Shown here: positions 27,546-37,770 of the stretch, one piece after another
How positions within the stretch are numbered: the first letter of the stretch is position 1
How the letters are laid out: each line of letters begins with the position of its first letter
Source of the DNA: Candidatus Eiseniibacteriota bacterium
GTDB taxonomy: Bacteria; Eisenbacteria; RBG-16-71-46; CAIMUX01; VGJL01
NCBI GenBank assembly: GCA_963792585.1
Contig: CAWBWI010000003.1
Coordinates: 896,001-960,000 of the forward strand
Direction of reading: 5' to 3'
DNA: 64,000 bases
Notes under the pieces: generated by a model
What the model saw: only the letters and a program-made list of their open reading frames with translations
What the model was told of the DNA's origin: nothing
Database searches by the model: none
Translations under genes and position numbers: made by a program

Positions 27546-28544
27546 TTAGTCTGCCATCGCCTCCGGGCCGCCATGGATGGCATCCTCGATGCGGCGGCGT
27601 AGGCGCGGGCCCCAAGGATTGCCGTCGAATGGAAGCGCATCGGGGTCAAAGAAGGCGACCTCGAGGCTCTCGACGCCGTCAGGACGCAGCTCGCCGCCTT
27701 CCACCTCGCACAGAAAGCTCGCGACGGCCAGCCACACCTGATCGCCGTTAGGGTAGGTGCTGCGCTGCTCCGGTCCGGTGTAGAAGCCGCCCAGCCGTAC
27801 GGGGCGCACCCGAAGGCCTGTCTCCTCGAAAACCTCACGGGAGCAGGTGAGGTCGATGCGTTCCCCCAACTCCATCCCGCCGGCGGGGAGGCCCCAGAGG
27901 CCGGTGTCGCCGCGGCGATGGAGGAGGATTCGTCCTTCCGCGTCACGCACGACCGCGCAGGCGCACGGCATGAGAAGGGGCTCACTGCCGACGCGCCCAC
28001 GGAGCCAGCGGATCAACCCCTCCGGATGGGGATTCGCATCTTCGAGGCGGCCCGCGTCATGGCGTGTTGGGCCGTCGGTCGCGCGCGCGTCGTGGAGCAT
28101 CTGCTCGTACCAGGGGAAGAGCTTCGGCGCCTCCTCGATCGGGAGGAACTTCTGGCCGAGCGACTCGGTGCCGTCGGGGTGATCGGCGCCCCCCGCGATC
28201 GAACACTCGAAGCAGGCGGTCACCTGCTGGACGACGTCCCCGTTGCGGTAGTGGACATTGTATTCGGGCGATGTGTAGAGGCCGACGAAGCGGCCGGGCC
28301 GCACGTCGAACCCCGTCTCCTCGCGCGCCTCGCGCACGAGCGTCTGTCGGATCGTCTCGCCCGGCTCGAGCAGGCCGCCGGGAAGACCCCAGATCTTGAA
28401 ATCGCCGCGGTGTTGAAAGAGGATGCGGCCCTGCGCGTCGCGGATGAGCGCGGTCGCGTAGACGAGAAGAATCGGCGCATTGCCGACTCGAGAGCGGATC
28501 CACTCCAGATAGGTGGCGGACGGCTGTGGATCAGGATGCTGCAT
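27546..28544 (-). CDS. Tandem double NUDIX hydrolase
   Basis: Two Nudix boxes, GGLLEPGETIRQTLVREAREETG and AGGMELGERIDLTCSREVFEETG; ATG 28544. Confidence 0.9.
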   Translation of the reverse strand: MQHPDPQPSATYLEWIRSRVGNAPILLVYATALIRDAQGRILFQHRGDFKIWGLPGGLLEPGETIRQTLVREAREETGFDVRPGRFVGLYTSPEYNVHYRNGDVVQQVTACFECSIAGGADHPDGTESLGQKFLPIEEAPKLFPWYEQMLHDARATDGPTRHDAGRLEDANPHPEGLIRWLRGRVGSEPLLMPCACAVVRDAEGRILLHRRGDTGLWGLPAGGMELGERIDLTCSREVFEETGLRVRPVRLGGFYTGPEQRSTYPNGDQVWLAVASFLCEVEGGELRPDGVESLEVAFFDPDALPFDGNPWGPRLRRRIEDAIHGGPEAMAD

Positions 28545-28595
28545 GGCTCCACTGTAACCGATCATGGAGGCGCAGGCCCGCGTCGGGCGTCGCGT

Positions 28596-29026
28596 CGCGG
28601 GCTTCGCGTCCGGCGGGCGCCTCCAGTCGGCGCATAGCGCAGCTCCTTCCGGCGTCCGCCTCCCGCTCGCCCGTGGACCGCCGGCGGTCTGCGCGCGGGC
28701 TTCGCGTCCGGCGGGTGCCTCCAGTCGGCGCATAGCGCAGCTCCTTCCAGCGCCCGCCTCCCGCTCGCCCGTGGACCGCCGCTGGCCTGCGTGCGGGCGT
28801 CACGCCGCGCGACGCGGCGCGGGCTTCGCGTCCGGCGGGCGCCTTCAGTCGGCGCATAGCGCAGCTCCTTCCGGCGTCCGCCTCCCGCTCGCCCGTGGGC
28901 CGCCGCTGGCCTGCGTGCGGGCGTCACGCCGCGCGTCGCGCCGCGGGCGTCGCGTCCGGCGGGTGCCTCCAGTCGGCGCATAGCGCAGCTCCTTCCAGCA
29001 CCCGCCTCCCGCTCGCCCGTGGACCG
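28596..29026. repeat. Four-copy array of an ~85-bp structured REP-like element
   Basis: Copies start at 28596, 28694, 28818 and 28942; core cgcgtccggcgggYgccTYcagtcggcgcatagcgcagctccttccRgcRYccgcctcccgctcgcccgtgg. Confidence 0.92.
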
Positions 29027-29040
29027 TCGGGGCGATCCAG

Positions 29041-32000
29041 CTATCTGAGGATGACCAGGCGCCGGCTCTCCCGGTACGGTCCGGCCTCGATCCTGTAGAA
29101 GTAAACACCCGCACCCACCCGCCGGTGCGCGCCGTCCGTGCCGTCCCAGACGAGGGCATGCCCACCGGCGCTTCGCGGCCCGTTCAGGAGCCTGCGCACG
29201 AGGCGACCGCTCACGTCGAATACGCTGAGGCGGACGTCGCTGGGCGTCGCGAGGTGGAATCGAAGTGTCGTCGCATCCAGGAACGGATTCGGCCCCCCGG
29301 GCAGGATTCGCGTCCGGAGTGCCGGCGGGGTGTCCCCGATTCCCGCGGCATAGAGATAGCTCACCTGGGCGGCCTCCGCGCTCTGTCGCAAATCGTCGAG
29401 GGACGAGCCGCCGATGAGAGCGAACGCGAACTCCTGCATCTCGCCCGGAGCGAGATCGAAGGGTCCGGTCGCGGCAAGCACTCCATAGTCGTCCGGGTTG
29501 GGCGCACTCTTCAAGATGTGGGCCGAGTCCGAAGCGGACAAGAATGCGAACTTGTCGGCATCCAGAATGTACTCGTTCGGGTAGACATACGTCGGATTGT
29601 GGATCAGGGTCAGATGACGGTGCACAACCTGGACGCTGTCACCGTCTCCTCCCCGTTCGCCGGCGAGTAGCCGCAGGCCGGCATACGTCGAGCCGTCGGT
29701 CAGGAAGGCGAGGCCCGGGCCCTCTTCGACGGCTCCGGTATTCGTCGTATAGGTCAAGGAGTTGATGTCCAGGTCGAGGAAGAGCCCTGCGTAAAGGCCG
29801 GCGAGCGGCTGTTCCGAGCGATTCCGAACGAGGTAACGGAGAACGACGAAGTTCTCCCTCGGAGCGGACAGGAATCCCCATGACTCCTGCTGGACCGTGA
29901 TTCCGAGCGGTTGCGCCGCTCCTTCATCAGAGAAGAACGCCTGAATGTCCTGGTCCGACTGGTTGTCGGTGCTGTACCAGATGTGCCCGTCTGGATCGCG
30001 CGATACGTCCCACTCCTTGCTCGGGTCGAGATCGTAGTCTCGATTCTCGACAGTGGCCGCATCACTCGCGATCCAGAAACTGCCGACGAAGAGCAGGTTC
30101 TGGACGCCGGCCGGATAGATGAAGCCGTTTCCCTGGGTTCCCGTCGCATCCATGAAACCGACGATCCCGCGATCCGTCACGGTCAGGCTGCAGTTGCCGG
30201 CGATCTGGTCGGCGTAGTCGCGTGACTCGGTGCAGCCAACCGGGTACGCCCCCATCAGTGCGCAGCCGGGCGGAGAGTGTGGAGCACAAGGGGAATTGTC
30301 CTGGAGATGGTAGTCCCCGTCCATGGAGTCACAATAGAAGGGATCCTGGCCGATGTTTCCGTTCAAACCGAGCTGGTCGGCGATTCCCCCCACCCAGTCC
30401 CCACCGGCATTGCCGAAGATGTCGCAGCATGAGAGGTTCGCGCCCTGAGGCTCGTCGCACCAGACGCCCGGGCCGGGCACGTTGAAGCTCACGATCGTGT
30501 TGGCAAAGCTCGCGTGGGAGCCCTCTCCCAGGTAGACGGCCGACCCATTGTCCGGCCGGCCGGACGGCGGGTAGGCGGCGTTGTTCTTGTCGATGGTCGT
30601 CCCGGAGTTGGTTACCGTGGACGAGAGCGCATAGTAGGCCGATCCGTTGGTGCCCGCCGTGTTGCCGGTGAACAGGCAGTTCACGAGGGCCGGCGTCGAG
30701 TTCAGGAAGTAGGCTCCGCCGCCGTAGATCGTCGCCCCGTTCGCGTTGAAGATGCATCGGGAGAAGATCGTCGAGCAGCTCGATCCATAGACGCCCCCTC
30801 CACGCGCGGTCGCCTGGTTGTTGTCGAACGTGCAGATGGAAACGACCGGGCTTAGAACGCCCGTGCTGTAGGTCCAGATCCCGGCGCCGCCGATCGCACT
30901 ATTGTCGATGAATGCGCAATGGCTGATCTCGGGATTGGCGTCCCCCGAGCAAAAGGCCCCGCCGCCGTCATTGGTCGCCTCGTTGTCGGCGAACACGCAC
31001 TGGTCGATCGTGGGCGAAGCGTCGATGCAGTAGATGCCGCCACCGTTGACCCCTCGTCCTCTCTTGACGGTGATGCCGTCCAGAAGGGAGCGATACTCCT
31101 CATACGTCTGGAACTTGACCCCCTGGCCGCCGCTCTGACAATCGATGATGCAGGACTCGGGGAGCCCTGAGACGGAGAAGACCGCGATCTTCTTCCCCAG
31201 GAAGTCGATGCCCCGGTTTCCCTGGCCCGTGTAGGTGCCATCCAGCAACCCGACGGCAAAGCCGTCACCGAGTTGATTGATGGCGGCCTGGACGTTGGCG
31301 TAGTCGCCGGTGCCATCCGCTTCGACGGTGGAGCCACGGACCAGGTCAATGCCGCAGGCAGTTCCATGATCGAAGAGCGCGAATTGTCCGCACTCCGACT
31401 GAAACATGCTCGTCGCGCTGTGTCCGACGCCCGGAACGTCGGCCACTGTCTGGATGCATGGGCGGGAGGTCTCGGCGTAGAAATGAGCCAGGTAGTTCTT
31501 GTAGATGATGCCTCGGTCGTACCGACGCCGACCTTGGAGATTGGCCGCGCACACCATGTCGAGCTGATCGGTGAGCGTGTCGGCGGTGCCGAGGAGGTAC
31601 ATGACGCGACGCAAGCGAAACGACTCGATCAGGGTCAGGTCGCCGACGCGGCCCATGTAGTGGCCCACTGGGATCGCTTCAAAGCCATACTTGTAGTGAT
31701 TGAAGGTCGGACAGTCGGCAATGGTCTGCGCGTCGGGGATCGCGTAGTCGTACTGGGTCCCCTGAATCCATCGCGTTTGGTCGAGATACATGTAGGAAGA
31801 CGGATTGGCGACCGTGTAGCTCACCGTGATGCCGTAGTCGTCGAGCAGGTCTTGTTCGACCTGGTTTCCGATCGAGTAGCGATTCACGAACTGACCGCCT
31901 GCGGAGTGGCCGGCGACGACGATCTTTCGGAGGTTGACGTTGTTCTGCGCCAACCGCGTCAGAATCGAATCGACAACGGAGTATGAGCTAATCGAGGCGG

Positions 32001-32625
32001 GCCGGGGGTGGTTGGTCGTCGAGAGGGAGTTGTCACCTTGTGCCCATCCACCTTCGGACCAGAACAGGACGTTGCTTTCGAGTCCATGCTCGACGATGTC
32101 GTTTTCGATCAGGAATTGGGGGACGATGATGATCGTGTGATCATCGGCGTCCGCATCGTTCGCGGCCGTGACGACGGCATCGTAGTAGCCGTGCGCGTTC
32201 CTCCCGATGCCATGGATGACGACGACGGCTCGAGTGATGTTCGTGTACGCCCCGCCGAGCGCGAGGGATCGATAGTAGGGGACCTTGAGAGTGTTCCCCT
32301 GAAGCGCGAAGGTGATCCGGCTGTCCGCCACGTCGATGCTCGACCGATCCTCGAGATCCCCCTCGAGGGTGGAAGGCTGATCCGGTCCCATCCGGTCGGA
32401 TTCCACTTCGGCTTTCGCATCTTCGAGGTCTATGGGGCAGGGCCTCGCGGGTATCCCTGGGGTGGGGAAATGCGCTCCTGGGGGAGGAGAGGCTGTGGGT
32501 TCGAGCGCTTCCGCAGCGCTACCGGCTCCGGCGGAGGTGCCGGCAAGCGCCATACACACAAACGTTCCTGAGAGGAGGAGAACCGAGGCGAGGCCCCTGC
32601 GAATCGGAAAGATGACCGAGTTCAT
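29041..32625 (-). CDS. Large secreted protein: alpha/beta hydrolase, right-handed beta-helix repeats, C-terminal FlgD-Ig/T9SS-like domain
   Basis: GHSAGG nucleophile elbow; GGG...FxxN repeats; PNPF...VFDVSGRLVR...WDG...GVYF. Confidence 0.85.
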   Translation of the reverse strand: MNSVIFPIRRGLASVLLLSGTFVCMALAGTSAGAGSAAEALEPTASPPPGAHFPTPGIPARPCPIDLEDAKAEVESDRMGPDQPSTLEGDLEDRSSIDVADSRITFALQGNTLKVPYYRSLALGGAYTNITRAVVVIHGIGRNAHGYYDAVVTAANDADADDHTIIIVPQFLIENDIVEHGLESNVLFWSEGGWAQGDNSLSTTNHPRPASISSYSVVDSILTRLAQNNVNLRKIVVAGHSAGGQFVNRYSIGNQVEQDLLDDYGITVSYTVANPSSYMYLDQTRWIQGTQYDYAIPDAQTIADCPTFNHYKYGFEAIPVGHYMGRVGDLTLIESFRLRRVMYLLGTADTLTDQLDMVCAANLQGRRRYDRGIIYKNYLAHFYAETSRPCIQTVADVPGVGHSATSMFQSECGQFALFDHGTACGIDLVRGSTVEADGTGDYANVQAAINQLGDGFAVGLLDGTYTGQGNRGIDFLGKKIAVFSVSGLPESCIIDCQSGGQGVKFQTYEEYRSLLDGITVKRGRGVNGGGIYCIDASPTIDQCVFADNEATNDGGGAFCSGDANPEISHCAFIDNSAIGGAGIWTYSTGVLSPVVSICTFDNNQATARGGGVYGSSCSTIFSRCIFNANGATIYGGGAYFLNSTPALVNCLFTGNTAGTNGSAYYALSSTVTNSGTTIDKNNAAYPPSGRPDNGSAVYLGEGSHASFANTIVSFNVPGPGVWCDEPQGANLSCCDIFGNAGGDWVGGIADQLGLNGNIGQDPFYCDSMDGDYHLQDNSPCAPHSPPGCALMGAYPVGCTESRDYADQIAGNCSLTVTDRGIVGFMDATGTQGNGFIYPAGVQNLLFVGSFWIASDAATVENRDYDLDPSKEWDVSRDPDGHIWYSTDNQSDQDIQAFFSDEGAAQPLGITVQQESWGFLSAPRENFVVLRYLVRNRSEQPLAGLYAGLFLDLDINSLTYTTNTGAVEEGPGLAFLTDGSTYAGLRLLAGERGGDGDSVQVVHRHLTLIHNPTYVYPNEYILDADKFAFLSASDSAHILKSAPNPDDYGVLAATGPFDLAPGEMQEFAFALIGGSSLDDLRQSAEAAQVSYLYAAGIGDTPPALRTRILPGGPNPFLDATTLRFHLATPSDVRLSVFDVSGRLVRRLLNGPRSAGGHALVWDGTDGAHRRVGAGVYFYRIEAGPYRESRRLVILR

Positions 32626-33020
32626 GACGGATCACTCCTTCGCGGTGATGGCCGGGGATCGGGAGAGCCGGTCACAGTCGGTCATCGCCGACGGCCGAAC
32701 GATGAGTGAATTTCCGGACCCGAGACCGGTGATCGCAAGAGGATCGCGTGACTGCCATCACATTGGCTCTCGCGAGGCAGGAGGCACTGCGCCGGTGGGC
32801 CGCGGGCCATGGATGGAATCGTGCCGCTCGGACCAATTGTCGCGATTCAGGTCGGTCGCGTATGGAGCGGCAGGCGGTCAAGCCTTCGATGGGTGAGGCC
32901 GGACCTCGGTGTCCGCGGATGATTCTATCACCGGTCGCACGGGAATCACAGCACCGTTGCGCAGGCCCGGCTGGGCGGGCCCGCGCAGGTGGTCTTGTGG
33001 ATTGCGATCGCGATGCGACC

Positions 33021-35918
33021 CTATCGGATCCGCACGATCGGGCGCGTGGCGATCGTCTTCCCATCCACCTCGAGAGCATAGAAATAGACTCCGGCGGGCA
33101 CGGTCCGTCCGGCAATGTCCTTGCCGTCCCAGCGGACGACCCGCTCTCCGGCGGCCGCCGGTCCCTCGAGCAGGCTCATGACGTTGCGTCCAGCCGCGTC
33201 GATGATTCGCAGGCTCGCGGACGCTGCGGCGACGGGAAGTCGGAAACCGATGAGCGACGCGTCCCGGAACGGGTTCGGCCGCGCGGGCAGGAGCCGTATC
33301 GACGGCTCGGTGGAGACGGATTCATCCGCTCCCGCGGCGCCCGGCCCCATGAGGTAGATCGCGACGTCATCGATGTACCAACCGGGACCGTTCACGCCGC
33401 CGTCGCTGCCGAAACGGAACCGGATGGTCATGTGTGATTGCGCGTAGGCGGACAGATCGAAGGCGATGGGTTGCCATCCACCGGAGTTGCCGCTCCAGCC
33501 GTCCTCGTTTCCGAGACCGGACAGGAACTTCGCCGGGTATCCGCCGATGGGCGTGATCGTGACCCAGCCCGACCCGGTGTTGACCTGCACGTTGCCTCCG
33601 TCGAATCCGGACTCCGTGTCGTAGTAGTGCGTGAAGCTGAGGACGAGCGGGTAGCCGGTCGGGTCGAGAACCGGGCTGGTCAGGGTCGCCGTCGCGTTGT
33701 CGGGGTAGTTGCCCGTTAGATTCGTCCCCCAGCAGCGCGTCCCCGAGAACGCCCCATCCGGACCGACGCCGCTGGGCGTTCCCCATTGCCAGAGCGCATC
33801 TCCCGTGTATCCGCCGCCGCCGGCCTCGAAGGTCTCCGCGTCGAACAGCGTTGCGTTCGCGATCGCCCCTTGGTTCGCCTGGACCGCGAACGTCTTCCAC
33901 GCGGCTCCGTACGTGGGGAGAAGGCCGAAGAGCGCCTGGTAGCCCCCGCCGACGGGGATGCCGGGGATCCGATACGCGCCGGATGCATCCGTCTGCGTCG
34001 TCGGGAGCGGCGTATCGAGGACTCTCACCGTTACCCCCGCCAGGGGCGCGCCGGAATCATCGAGCACATTCCCCGCGACGTCATTGGACGGCGCCGGAGA
34101 AAGGGAGAAGTCCACGACCTCCTGCTGGCCCGCGCCGACCGTGACCACCTGCTCCGTCGTCAGATGGAAGAAGTCGGAAACGCGCAATGTGTAGATCCCG
34201 CTTCGCAGCGGGATCCGATAGGCTCCGGTCCCATCCGCCAGCGTGAGAATGTTGCGCTCCACGAGGAGGATCTTCGCGCCCGGGATCGGTTGGTTCGTCA
34301 CCGCATCGCGAACCGTTCCCGAGACCGTGCCGATTCCTTGCAGGAGCATCGCCCGGGCTGCGAGGAGGTTCGGGCGGTTGCCGATCCGCCTGGCACCGAC
34401 CCACGGGGTGCCCGTATCGAAGAGGATCTGCGCGGCGAGCGGCCCGCTCAAGGGGATCCCCCACAGGGCTTTGCTCATCCCCTGGAGAGACGCGACCGAC
34501 CCCGACACGATCGGGCTCGCGCTCGATGTTCCGTTGAACGCGGCGGTGTACCACTGCGTCTCCGCACCGCCTTGAAGATCTCCGTAGCCCGTCGTGGTGA
34601 CCGAATCACCCCAGCCGTTCAGATCGAGACGGCTCCCATAGTTCGAGAACCATTCGGCGTCGAGACCGGTGGGCGTGCCGGCGCCCACGATGATGGCGCC
34701 CGAGTTGCGGACGGTGCGGTCGAAGAGCCCCTGATAGATCGGATCGTCGTAGTTCTCCTCCCCGTTACCGGCGGCCTCGATGCAGATCCGCCCGTTCGCG
34801 ACGGCGGTCTGGATCGCGTCGAAGTTGTCCTGCCAGAATTCCATGGCGACATAGCCGTGCTGGCCGACGCCGTTCGCATTGGGACCCGGGGCGTGGAGTT
34901 CGATCAGGAAGAGATCGCCGATCGATTCGTTCGCGGCGGCCATGTCGATCGCGTCCGCGACCCCGACGTCGCCGATCGAAATGCCGCCGATCGCGAGATC
35001 GCTGGCAATGCCGGTGACGCCGGATCCGTTCGGGCGCCCGGCCATCTCGCCCATGACGGCCGTGCCGTGATTGCGCCATCCGGCATCGTTGATCGGCGTG
35101 CCCCCGGTGAAGAAGGGGGGCTTCAGGTCCTCGTGGTTCCAGAGCCACGCGCCCTCGATGTCGATGATGCGGACGAGGGCTCCGCGTCCTCCGGGAAAGC
35201 CCCAGACCGCCTGCGCGTTGACGCCGGATGGCGACGGGCCGAGGTATCCTTGCATGCCGGTGAAATCAGGCGTCGCTGGGGCAGGGGGACTCTGCGGGGT
35301 CCCGCCTTGAAGGGATGAGATCTGCCTCGACACGTCCAGTGTCGATCTGCCTTGCGCACGCGCCACCGCTCTCGCCGGCTGCGGAATCGGCTCGGCGAAT
35401 GCGCACTCGACGGGGGGGAGCGCCCGCACCTCCGCCAGCATCGAGGTGAGCGAGGCGGCGCTCTGCGCGCCGGTGGGCAGGCGGAACTCGAAGTAGAGGT
35501 TCAGGTCTGCAAGTTCCCAGCCGCTTTCCCGCTGCCCGCTCTCGCGGACGATGTCGAGCTCCTCCTCGGATCTGGAGAAGTGCCGCACGACCTGAACGCC
35601 CGGATGCGCGGCGAGCCATGCATCAACCGAACTCAAGTCCGCAGACGCATCGAGGCTCGTCAATCGCGCGCCGCGGAGTCGAATAAGAGTTCCCTCGTGG
35701 AACTTGACCACCAAACGATCGAGGCGATCGAATTCCGCTCGCGCAGCCGGCAATGTCGCCTTGGACAGGACGTGGCGGGGGAGGAGTCCCGGCTCCGTCG
35801 CAGGGGCGCTCGCCGCGGGCGCGGCGCCCATGGGCCCCATCAACACGGCCATCCAGGTGAGGAGAACGGCGGTCACGGCGAAGTCGCGGCCCGATGGGAG
35901 TGCGAATCTACGGTGCAT
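33021..35918 (-). CDS. Secreted S8 (subtilisin-like) peptidase with carboxypeptidase-regulatory-like repeats, beta-sandwich and FlgD-Ig C-terminus
   Basis: Catalytic triad IIDIEG / NHGTAV / FNGTSSASP; GWYIDDV; PNPF...WDG...GVYF. Confidence 0.92.
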   Translation of the reverse strand: MHRRFALPSGRDFAVTAVLLTWMAVLMGPMGAAPAASAPATEPGLLPRHVLSKATLPAARAEFDRLDRLVVKFHEGTLIRLRGARLTSLDASADLSSVDAWLAAHPGVQVVRHFSRSEEELDIVRESGQRESGWELADLNLYFEFRLPTGAQSAASLTSMLAEVRALPPVECAFAEPIPQPARAVARAQGRSTLDVSRQISSLQGGTPQSPPAPATPDFTGMQGYLGPSPSGVNAQAVWGFPGGRGALVRIIDIEGAWLWNHEDLKPPFFTGGTPINDAGWRNHGTAVMGEMAGRPNGSGVTGIASDLAIGGISIGDVGVADAIDMAAANESIGDLFLIELHAPGPNANGVGQHGYVAMEFWQDNFDAIQTAVANGRICIEAAGNGEENYDDPIYQGLFDRTVRNSGAIIVGAGTPTGLDAEWFSNYGSRLDLNGWGDSVTTTGYGDLQGGAETQWYTAAFNGTSSASPIVSGSVASLQGMSKALWGIPLSGPLAAQILFDTGTPWVGARRIGNRPNLLAARAMLLQGIGTVSGTVRDAVTNQPIPGAKILLVERNILTLADGTGAYRIPLRSGIYTLRVSDFFHLTTEQVVTVGAGQQEVVDFSLSPAPSNDVAGNVLDDSGAPLAGVTVRVLDTPLPTTQTDASGAYRIPGIPVGGGYQALFGLLPTYGAAWKTFAVQANQGAIANATLFDAETFEAGGGGYTGDALWQWGTPSGVGPDGAFSGTRCWGTNLTGNYPDNATATLTSPVLDPTGYPLVLSFTHYYDTESGFDGGNVQVNTGSGWVTITPIGGYPAKFLSGLGNEDGWSGNSGGWQPIAFDLSAYAQSHMTIRFRFGSDGGVNGPGWYIDDVAIYLMGPGAAGADESVSTEPSIRLLPARPNPFRDASLIGFRLPVAAASASLRIIDAAGRNVMSLLEGPAAAGERVVRWDGKDIAGRTVPAGVYFYALEVDGKTIATRPIVRIR

Positions 35919-36008: not shown

Positions 36009-36099
36009 GGCGATCGGACCCATGAGGGGACTTGGTGATCGCCCGGCGGGGCGATTTCGCATTCGAGAGAGGAGAGGAGAAGAAGGTGCGGCAAGCGGA

Positions 36100-36287
36100 C
36101 GTCGGCTGCGCCAAATCAAAAAGCGAGGGAAATGCGGCCAGTTAGCCCCTCTGTCGCATCGCCCTCGCCCAGGCTTCTCTATGAGAGCTTGTGCCCCCGG
36201 AGCTAACTGGTACCGAGGTCGCTCCCCGTTTGACCGGCGCGCGTTCGGATCCCACCAGGAGCACTACTACGTTCCTGACAACCAACG
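36100..36287 (-). ncRNA. Unassigned structured RNA (sRNA or riboswitch-like leader) with alternative terminator/antiterminator folds
   Basis: Dedicated promoter; 5' hairpin UCAGGA..GUAGUAG..UCCUGG; terminator GCGAGGGCGAUGCG/CGCAUUUCCCUCGC followed by UUUUU; competing helix CCAGUUAGCUCC/GGGGCUAACUGG. Confidence 0.7.
36118..36168 (-). terminator. Intrinsic terminator
   Basis: 13 of 14 positions paired (36155-36168 with 36123-36136), followed by UUUUUGAUUU. Confidence 0.75.
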
Positions 36288-36317
36288 ATCATAGCAGGTT
36301 CGCGGTTCTGAAGTCAA
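36288..36317 (-). promoter_or_regulatory. Strong sigma70 promoter driving the candidate RNA
   Basis: TTGACT-N18-TATGAT with extended -10 TG. Confidence 0.75.
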
Positions 36318-36392
36318 GCTGATTCCCGGCTCGCCGCGCATCTTTGCACAGGAACCGCGGGCGCCGAATCGGATCGACCCCGCGCTCATGTC

Positions 36393-37651: not shown

Positions 37652-37770
37652 GGCCAAGCTCTCATTTACCGAAGGTCTCCGTGCTGGGCAATCTCGCAGG
37701 TCATTGAGGCCTCGCCGTCACACACAGGGACGAGCTGAACGCCGACCTGCTCGCCTTTCTCAGAGGCTGA
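37652..37770 (+). pseudogene. C-terminal remnant of a non-heme chloroperoxidase/arylesterase-type alpha/beta hydrolase
   Basis: 37708-37770 reads GLAVTHRDELNADLLAFLRG*; broken AKL.IY..SP upstream; no start codon or N-terminal part. Confidence 0.7.

Follow-up and report, generated by a model that had tools for sequence, protein, structure and literature searches.

What is a near-consensus promoter doing in front of a short DNA stretch that holds a terminator and a second, competing RNA fold in place of a gene? This question is raised by a locus on the minus strand of the 64,000-nt stretch of a Candidatus Eiseniibacteriota genome analysed here (the window). A preliminary description had suggested a riboswitch or attenuator, or a bistable small RNA. 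Our analysis bears out the non-coding RNA, the promoter, the terminator and a competing fold, and disfavours a small-molecule riboswitch because the 5' half, where the aptamer would lie, varies about as much as synonymous sites. The promoter-to-terminator element is real, conserved in very close relatives and uncatalogued, and its switch architecture is credible. Our best reading, held tentatively and at somewhat less than even chances, is a lineage-restricted transcription attenuator ahead of an S8 peptidase gene. From sequence and folding models we infer that the element would be transcribed and terminated and would control the peptidase. The features discussed are collected in Table 1.

Table 1 Features of the element and its surroundings (window coordinates).
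Feature	Position	Strand	Remarks
-35 hexamer TTGACT	36317-36312	minus	read in sequence and promoter scan
Extended -10, TG and TATGAT	36296-36295 and 36293-36288	minus	promoter scan and genome pattern count
RNA body, ~180 nt	36283..36104	minus	5' end probably 36283-36279, from promoter geometry
5' hairpin	36277-36256	minus	5 Watson-Crick pairs, G-U extendable; predicted
Fold-A 5' domain	36264-36191	minus	closed by 10-bp helix 36264-36255 / 36200-36191
Zipper 5' strands	36240-36220	minus	36240-36229 with 36120-36108 (U-tract and beyond); 36227-36220 with terminator 3' arm; predicted
Variable segment, 9 nt	36219-36211	minus	mostly unpaired in fold B, differs between relatives
Antiterminator core, 5' strand	36210-36199	minus	12 bp with 36149-36138, 9 contiguous Watson-Crick pairs
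Small hairpin stacked on core (fold B)	36198-36183	minus	computed helix list
Purine-rich linker, 14 nt	36182-36169	minus	weak pairing in either fold, same in X1-X3
Intrinsic terminator hairpin	36168-36123	minus	arms 36168-36155 / 36136-36123; loop holds antiterminator 3' strand 36149-36138
U-tract U5-GA-U3	36122-36113	minus	read in sequence
C-rich, G-poor tract	36100-36060	minus	18 C and 6 G in 41 nt, 3' of terminator
Second promoter-like site TTGCCG-N18-TAAAAT	36008-35979	minus	9/12 consensus, 60 nt before S8 start codon
S8 peptidase, 965 aa	35918-33021	minus	carboxypeptidase-regulatory, MAM-like and FlgD-Ig domains; candidate regulated gene
Upstream gene, 254 aa	37157-36393	minus	no Pfam family, outside element

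Promoter, terminator and the predicted RNA

The sigma-70 promoter reported by the preliminary description, TTGACT-N18-TATGAT (36317-36288), is present, scores 10/12 against the consensus and carries the TG extension. A promoter scan of 1.8 kb returned two sites, compared with 0.3 in shuffled sequence. Within the 5.4-Mb genome, the pattern TTGAC-N16-19-TGnTAnnAT occurs at four sites, this promoter being one of them, and the looser pattern without TG at 46. Transcription from it would start near 36283, and the terminated form would end at about 36118-36114, some 165-172 nt from the start.

The terminator (fold A) likewise proved to be as described, with 13 of 14 arm positions paired and U5 behind them; the hairpin has a free energy of -26.4 kcal/mol. 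It did not appear in the output of a consensus terminator scan, the scope of which was loops of 3-8 nt and uninterrupted stems. Genome-wide, 54 of 575 T5 runs lie 3' of a hairpin of -15 kcal/mol or below, versus 35 of 575 A5 runs taken as control, and the element's terminator ranks 14th among the 54. By eye, 11 of the 18 such sites examined come after a tRNA or the end of a gene, so terminators built in this way seem to be in use in the organism. A would-be paralogue at C1:893438 turned out to be an ordinary gene-end terminator with 13 nt in common. Elsewhere, at C1 ~317430-317550 (plus strand), a TTGACA promoter-like site stands ~110 nt ahead of a hairpin and T5 with no gene between, a candidate second small RNA or attenuator.

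The C-rich tract behind the terminator is a possible Rho loading site; a Rho gene was found in the genome, and the tract region (36060-36100) has diverged in two related contigs, X1 and X3, described below. Besides the full-length Rho on C3, a second, shorter Rho-like gene lies at C6:215564-216400 (minus strand; 356 bits, model positions 135-413).

The region had been described as lacking a credible open reading frame, and there is indeed no conserved one, because a net 2-nt deletion at 36184-36188, found in four of four related sequencing runs, shifts the frame of the 40-codon leader ORF that begins at GTG 36264. A ribosome-dependent (leader-peptide) attenuator was rejected on these grounds. 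The element is present as a single copy, without transposase or repeat family, and no long complementary target was found in the genome, where the longest other exact match, 16 nt, is at chance level.

Two mutually exclusive folds

Folding of a 181-nt RNA gave a minimum free energy of -76.1 kcal/mol, in a structure that includes the terminator, and a best pair-disjoint alternative of -72.7 kcal/mol. The former was reached by 9 of 200 shuffles and 9 of 150 GC-matched genomic windows, the latter by 1 of 200 and 0 of 150, and overall folding had a z of -2.06 (4 of 200 shuffles); these shuffle statistics are inflated, as the locus was picked by the preliminary description for having two folds. An energy gap this small is in itself nothing unusual, occurring in 40 of 200 shuffles and 37 of 150 windows.

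The second fold (fold B) had been drawn as a long rod. Its 12-bp core (36210-36199/36149-36138) and the zipper extending outward from it were recovered by computation; two of the minor helices went unsupported. The core's 3' strand is the terminator loop itself, and a Watson-Crick run of at least nine pairs was reached in 6 of 200 shuffles. Among the minor helices, the CGGU/CCG sub-helix loses one pair through the change at 36213 in relatives. The 8-bp 5'/3' helix said to close the rod is reduced to about 5 bp at most, its first three bases lying upstream of the likely start and its partners differing in X2. The GCUCUC-AUA-GAGAAGC hairpin is disrupted by changes at 36188-36184 in X1-X3, and an overlapping hairpin at 36198-36183 is, by eye, still pairable in all haplotypes. 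The predicted 5' hairpin (36277-36256) is part of fold B and competes with a 10-bp helix, 36264-36255/36200-36191, which was absent from the preliminary description. This helix belongs to fold A, has a pair probability of ~0.9 and appears early in prefix folding. It is a candidate anti-antiterminator that would trap the antiterminator 5' strand.

In prefix folding the antiterminator core is the minimum-energy structure for 3' ends 36136-36126, before the terminator 3' arm is complete. The terminator is ahead by 4.7-6.7 kcal/mol at 3' ends 36123-36110, and from 36104 onward the two folds lie within 0.1-1.7 kcal/mol of each other. At equilibrium fold B has a weight of only ~4% in the 181-nt RNA, and therefore any ON state would be kinetic.

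Conservation in very close relatives

Related DNA was found in four public runs (X1-X4), as contigs only, with shares of 0.04-0.09. X1 and X3 carry 36110-36336 beside the same peptidase gene, with 17-18 differing letters and 6 gaps. Upstream of 36336 their sequence is unlike that of the window, and 36020-36109 does not align at 80% while both flanks do. Their four indels all fall in the promoter spacer (36309-36297) and leave its length unchanged. X2 differs at 8 letters in 36110-36242; 36213, 36211, 36199 and 36188 are among those listed, and the four further changes probably lie in 36214-36242, their kinds fitting 36219-36216. Changes at 36213 and 36211 were listed in four of four runs. X4 is a freshwater contig that covers only 36127-36269, comes from a run marked 'probably DNA' and shows at most 2 further differences. 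The differences are common to X1-X3, which look like a single strain, and only about two independent haplotypes are therefore represented.

No substitution was among those listed for X1-X3 in the 74 nt of 36110-36183, which hold both terminator arms and the loop strand, a zero that derives from the differences listed, with 11 further rows of differences outside them. The neighbouring gene has 32 listed differences in 466 nt, with 16 of 155 third-codon positions affected, and against it the 0 of 74 has a P of ~0.0003-0.005. The fixed stretch includes the 18-19-nt terminator loop and the 14-nt linker.

With regard to pairing, no two-sided compensatory change was seen among the listed differences of these ~2 haplotypes, which are ~92% identical. 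One-sided changes that keep pairing were seen in the same small set. By eye, the change at 36199 pairs in both alternative helices, as G-U in 36264-36255/36200-36191 and as U-G in the core, and the G-run of hairpin 36198-36183 can still pair in X1-X3 and X4, where the pyrimidine run opposite is altered. Base 36109 differs in X2 with no visible change at its partner.

Comparison with known RNA families

The preliminary description had recognised no family, and the search it proposed, cmscan against Rfam, agrees: with Rfam 15 no family reached its gathering threshold in the window, and the best local scores of a 201-nt stretch were 8.7-15 bits versus thresholds of 44-60. Abundant structural RNAs were considered individually. 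In its size near 180 nt, rod-like fold B and strong promoter the element resembles 6S and large SRP RNA. It differs from both in that canonical copies lie elsewhere and in having neither the central bubble geometry of 6S nor SRP helix 8. The genome's only match to 6S RNA (RF00013) is at C1:527187-527362, and alignment of the element to 6S was no better than that of shuffles. Large bacterial SRP RNA (RF01854) or an Alu-only derivative was also rejected, with no model match at the element and helix 8 absent; the canonical large, Alu-containing SRP RNA is at C1:1236950-1237215 (161 bits), directly behind a tRNA-Ala gene. The SRP-Alu likeness once seen in the 5' hairpin did not withstand comparison, since 153-283 of 300 shuffles aligned equally well to the genome's own SRP RNA. 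The genome's RNase P and tmRNA are likewise at other loci. None of 24 comparisons with its RNase P, SRP, 6S and tmRNA was reliable, and the best (RNase P, 2 of 300 shuffles with lax gaps) was lost under other gap costs.

Bacterial Y RNAs usually have a Ro60 (TROVE) gene nearby; PF05731 was not found in this genome, which is 84% complete, and there was no YrlA model match. sRNA-Xcc1 (RF02221) and related phage leaders were not listed up to E 10, and the element is single copy. Searches of the genome with the ZMP/ZTP (RF01750), c-di-GMP-I (RF01051) and c-di-GMP-II (RF01786) riboswitch models (E 10, 1 and 10; best 150 first-look candidates each) did not include the locus among their matches; RF01750 gave nine sub-threshold matches, none at the element.

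Phylogenetic range

A BLAST-type search found the element in none of 60 relatives. Matches of 18-42 nt (E up to 0.05) were present in 26 of 205 genomes of the phylum, and none extended under nhmmer. We then used a covariance model, R1, which is weak, being built from a single sequence. It gave one match in 149 relatives (E 0.033), at a locus that shows no likeness, and four in 34 genomes of the order (E 0.07-0.54), none credible. Against its own genome at E 10 it returned the element only, and against 29 S8 homologue loci nothing. The collections may omit records very near the window's genome and the model is weak; the result must therefore be read as 'not found' rather than 'absent'. The homologue collection advised by the preliminary description, nhmmer included, has yielded contigs from very close relatives and no credible distant homologue. 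That sister genomes exist is evident from seven JGI proteins with 94-96% identity to the peptidase.

Exact-pattern matches in viral loci (8, 7, 1 and 13), in 99 metagenome loci (80 of 99 scored with R1, all 99 with nhmmer) and in genome collections (0 and 23 loci) were chance palindromes or coding sequence, and locus L131, similar by eye, was dropped on checking. Plasmids gave no match and phages only five short ones, and no insertion-sequence or prophage origin was found. The strong-promoter pattern occurs at three sites in five family genomes, none resembling the element. A literature search found no description of it; motif lists in the supplements of non-coding RNA surveys could hold one.

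The S8 peptidase and flanking genes

The peptidase had been thought to have its own promoter, and the promoter-like site at 36008-35979 fits this claim; its region aligns in X1 and X3. The RNA and the peptidase are adjacent in these contigs too, while the DNA upstream of 36336 differs. Homologues of the peptidase occur in 37 of 205 other genomes. No such leader is seen in their upstream regions, the orthologues inspected having short 5' regions, and in several a -10-like hexamer lies a short distance ahead of the start codon, as it does here. Near 32910 lies a 9-nt complement of the variable bulge; this 9-mer has 145 copies in the genome and was discarded.

Some features of the flanking DNA deserve separate mention. 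The 254-aa protein encoded upstream has PEP-CTERM and VPDSG-CTERM clusters among its Atlas neighbours, at scores below 0.9. It ends in a TWG-x-x-basic motif, and by eye a similar tail closes the proteins of the genes directly upstream of four S8 homologues (L036, L037, L039 and L052); the tail is perhaps a sorting signal. A second long untranslated gap, of ~400 nt (32625-33021, minus strand), with a TAGAAT hexamer near 32927, separates the peptidase from a 1194-aa FlgD-Ig protein. Behind the gene for the latter, overlapping ORFs with repeated peptide blocks at 75% GC (28531-29165) suggest that the DNA there is a repeat array, palindromic or tandem. At 37720-37770 (plus strand), a 16-codon stretch that ends in a stop and has no open frame before it resembles an alpha/beta hydrolase C-terminus, and is possibly a gene remnant.

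A possible transcription attenuator and its alternatives

How could such an element act as an attenuator? In the ON route, 36149-36138 would pair with 36210-36199 (12 bp) as soon as it emerges, and this core would enclose the terminator 5' arm before the 3' arm exists. Outward zipping of the rod would then take in the 3' arm and the U-tract and let polymerase read through. In the OFF route, the early domain closed by 36264-36255/36200-36191 would persist and keep the antiterminator strand trapped, and the 13/14-bp hairpin would form and stop polymerase at ~36118-36114. The trigger is likelier to be a protein, an antisense RNA or elongation kinetics than a small-molecule aptamer.

Several findings argue for this attenuator. 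Its promoter is one of four of its class in 5.4 Mb and keeps its spacer length despite four indels, the terminator is of the genome's usual type, a disjoint second fold of this stability is rare, and the core is the most stable fold until the terminator 3' arm is complete. The absence of listed substitutions extends into the loop, which need not stay fixed in an ordinary terminator, and the change at 36199 retains pairing in both alternative helices. The adjacency of RNA and peptidase is kept where upstream DNA is not, Hfq was not found in six of six family genomes, and a default-ON zipper antiterminator has a tested precedent (PMC13401043). Other findings count against it. The peptidase has its own promoter-like site, and the regions upstream of its orthologues are without the leader (R1, 0 of 29 loci). 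Compensatory changes were not observed, X2 has a different base at 36109 with no matching change visible at its partner, fold B is scarce at equilibrium, and near-equal energies are common in random sequence. The 5' half varies about as much as synonymous sites do, there are only ~2 independent haplotypes, the C-rich tract behind the terminator could halt read-through, and the evidence from relatives comes from contigs, which in X1 and X3 continue beyond the promoter into upstream DNA, and not from transcripts.

The main rival, because the peptidase has a promoter-like site of its own, is a stand-alone small RNA gene of ~165-172 nt, running from promoter to terminator and independent of the peptidase; we regard it as a serious possibility, with perhaps one chance in three. 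Here the fixed terminator loop and purine-rich linker would be the working parts, which bind a protein or pair in trans. Fold B would be a second or post-release conformation. Such an RNA would fit a promoter far stronger than is typical for the genome, a terminator favoured at the U-tract by ~6.5 kcal/mol, and a proximal promoter-like site at the peptidase as at its orthologues. It would also fit an RNA-peptidase spacer that fails 80% alignment while both flanks align. That the freshwater contig X4 covers only 36127-36269 is at most a weak hint, its run being 'probably DNA'. However, neither Hfq (six of six family genomes) nor Ro60 (in a genome 84% complete) was found, there is no long complementary target in the genome, and a fold that removes the whole terminator is obviously useful only with something downstream.

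It is unlikely that the element is a recently acquired or orphaned promoter-terminator cassette, a mobile attenuator or its relic, with fold B functionless at present and conservation reflecting the terminator and a short divergence time. Consistent with a cassette, searches of other genera did not turn up the element (0 of 60; nothing credible among 149 and 34 genomes with the covariance model), attenuators are said to evolve rapidly and sometimes to be mobile (PMC2965389), choice of the locus for its two folds inflates the shuffle statistics, and the alignment ends at 36110, a few bases beyond what the terminator needs. The 74 nt free of listed substitutions include an 18-19-nt loop and a 14-nt linker, however, and the promoter geometry is intact in a single-copy element with no transposase or repeat family.

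A strongly diverged ZTP or c-di-GMP riboswitch below Rfam thresholds is very improbable. In its favour is a resemblance only: a 6-bp helix in the computed list (36283-36278/36222-36217) and two short motifs are reminiscent of the ZTP aptamer, and c-di-GMP switches often precede secreted proteins. Against it, none of the three models nor cmscan lists the locus, the downstream gene is unconnected with purine or folate metabolism, and neither a P3 hairpin nor a J1/2:P3 pseudoknot partner, both features of ZTP riboswitches (10.1101/521930), is visible by eye in the sequence or helix list.

Returning to the proposed transcription attenuator, its closest architectural likeness is cATT of pLS20, a zipper-type attenuator in the long leader of a strong promoter that is antiterminated by default and has no known ligand, a protein or an antisense RNA having been proposed (PMC13401043). 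As there described, cATT shares with the fold predicted here a start from an inner stem, outward extension into terminator sequence and near-equal energies of the two states. In computed fold B, too, an inner long stem is extended by pairing between upstream and terminator sequence. In pLS20, however, both states contain the inner stem (ext-SL-3), the whole terminator is located downstream of it, and zipping takes up that terminator's 5' stem and loop. In the element, the inner stem itself is predicted to switch, because core and terminator exclude each other. The core pairs with the terminator loop, the 5' arm comes to lie inside it, and it is the 3' arm and U-tract that are zipped. The element is therefore not a member of the pLS20 zipper type. 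It is, moreover, chromosomal, with no conjugation operon or conAn system, and is likened to cATT by architecture.

S-box, TRAP and PyrR systems are terminator-type riboswitches or protein-dependent attenuators with anti-antiterminator logic. The element resembles them in its chain of mutually exclusive helices, that is, an early 5' helix, an antiterminator, and a terminator with its U-tract. Unlike them, it matches no aptamer family, its would-be sensor half is its variable half, and the presumed regulated gene gives no clue to a ligand. Mobile and lineage-specific attenuators are expected to be narrowly distributed and to evolve fast (PMC2965389). With these, as there portrayed, the element shares being an uncatalogued 5' terminator element of narrow distribution before an ordinary gene whose orthologues lack it; it differs in being single copy and in that no insertion-sequence or prophage origin was found.

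A bolder proposal, to which we give little credence, is a new class of regulated switch from an unstudied lineage. Its antiterminator would nucleate on the loop of the terminator itself, and a short, fast-changing bulge (36219-36211) in a fixed scaffold would set the trigger, an antisense RNA or a protein. Alternatively, the released product would be an abundant two-state RNA that works without Hfq.

Implications

The narrow range of the element limits its general weight. RNA-level regulation has nonetheless hardly been studied in lineages that are known chiefly through assembled genomes, and the element is compact, with a consensus sigma-70 promoter and two sharp folds, which makes it directly testable with E. 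coli RNA polymerase. Should it prove to be a stand-alone RNA, few loci in this genome, where no Hfq was found, would have a promoter as strong. If switching is true, it would add a second topology to the recently described zipper-type attenuators, nucleation on the terminator loop, and place a chromosomal secreted protease under such control.
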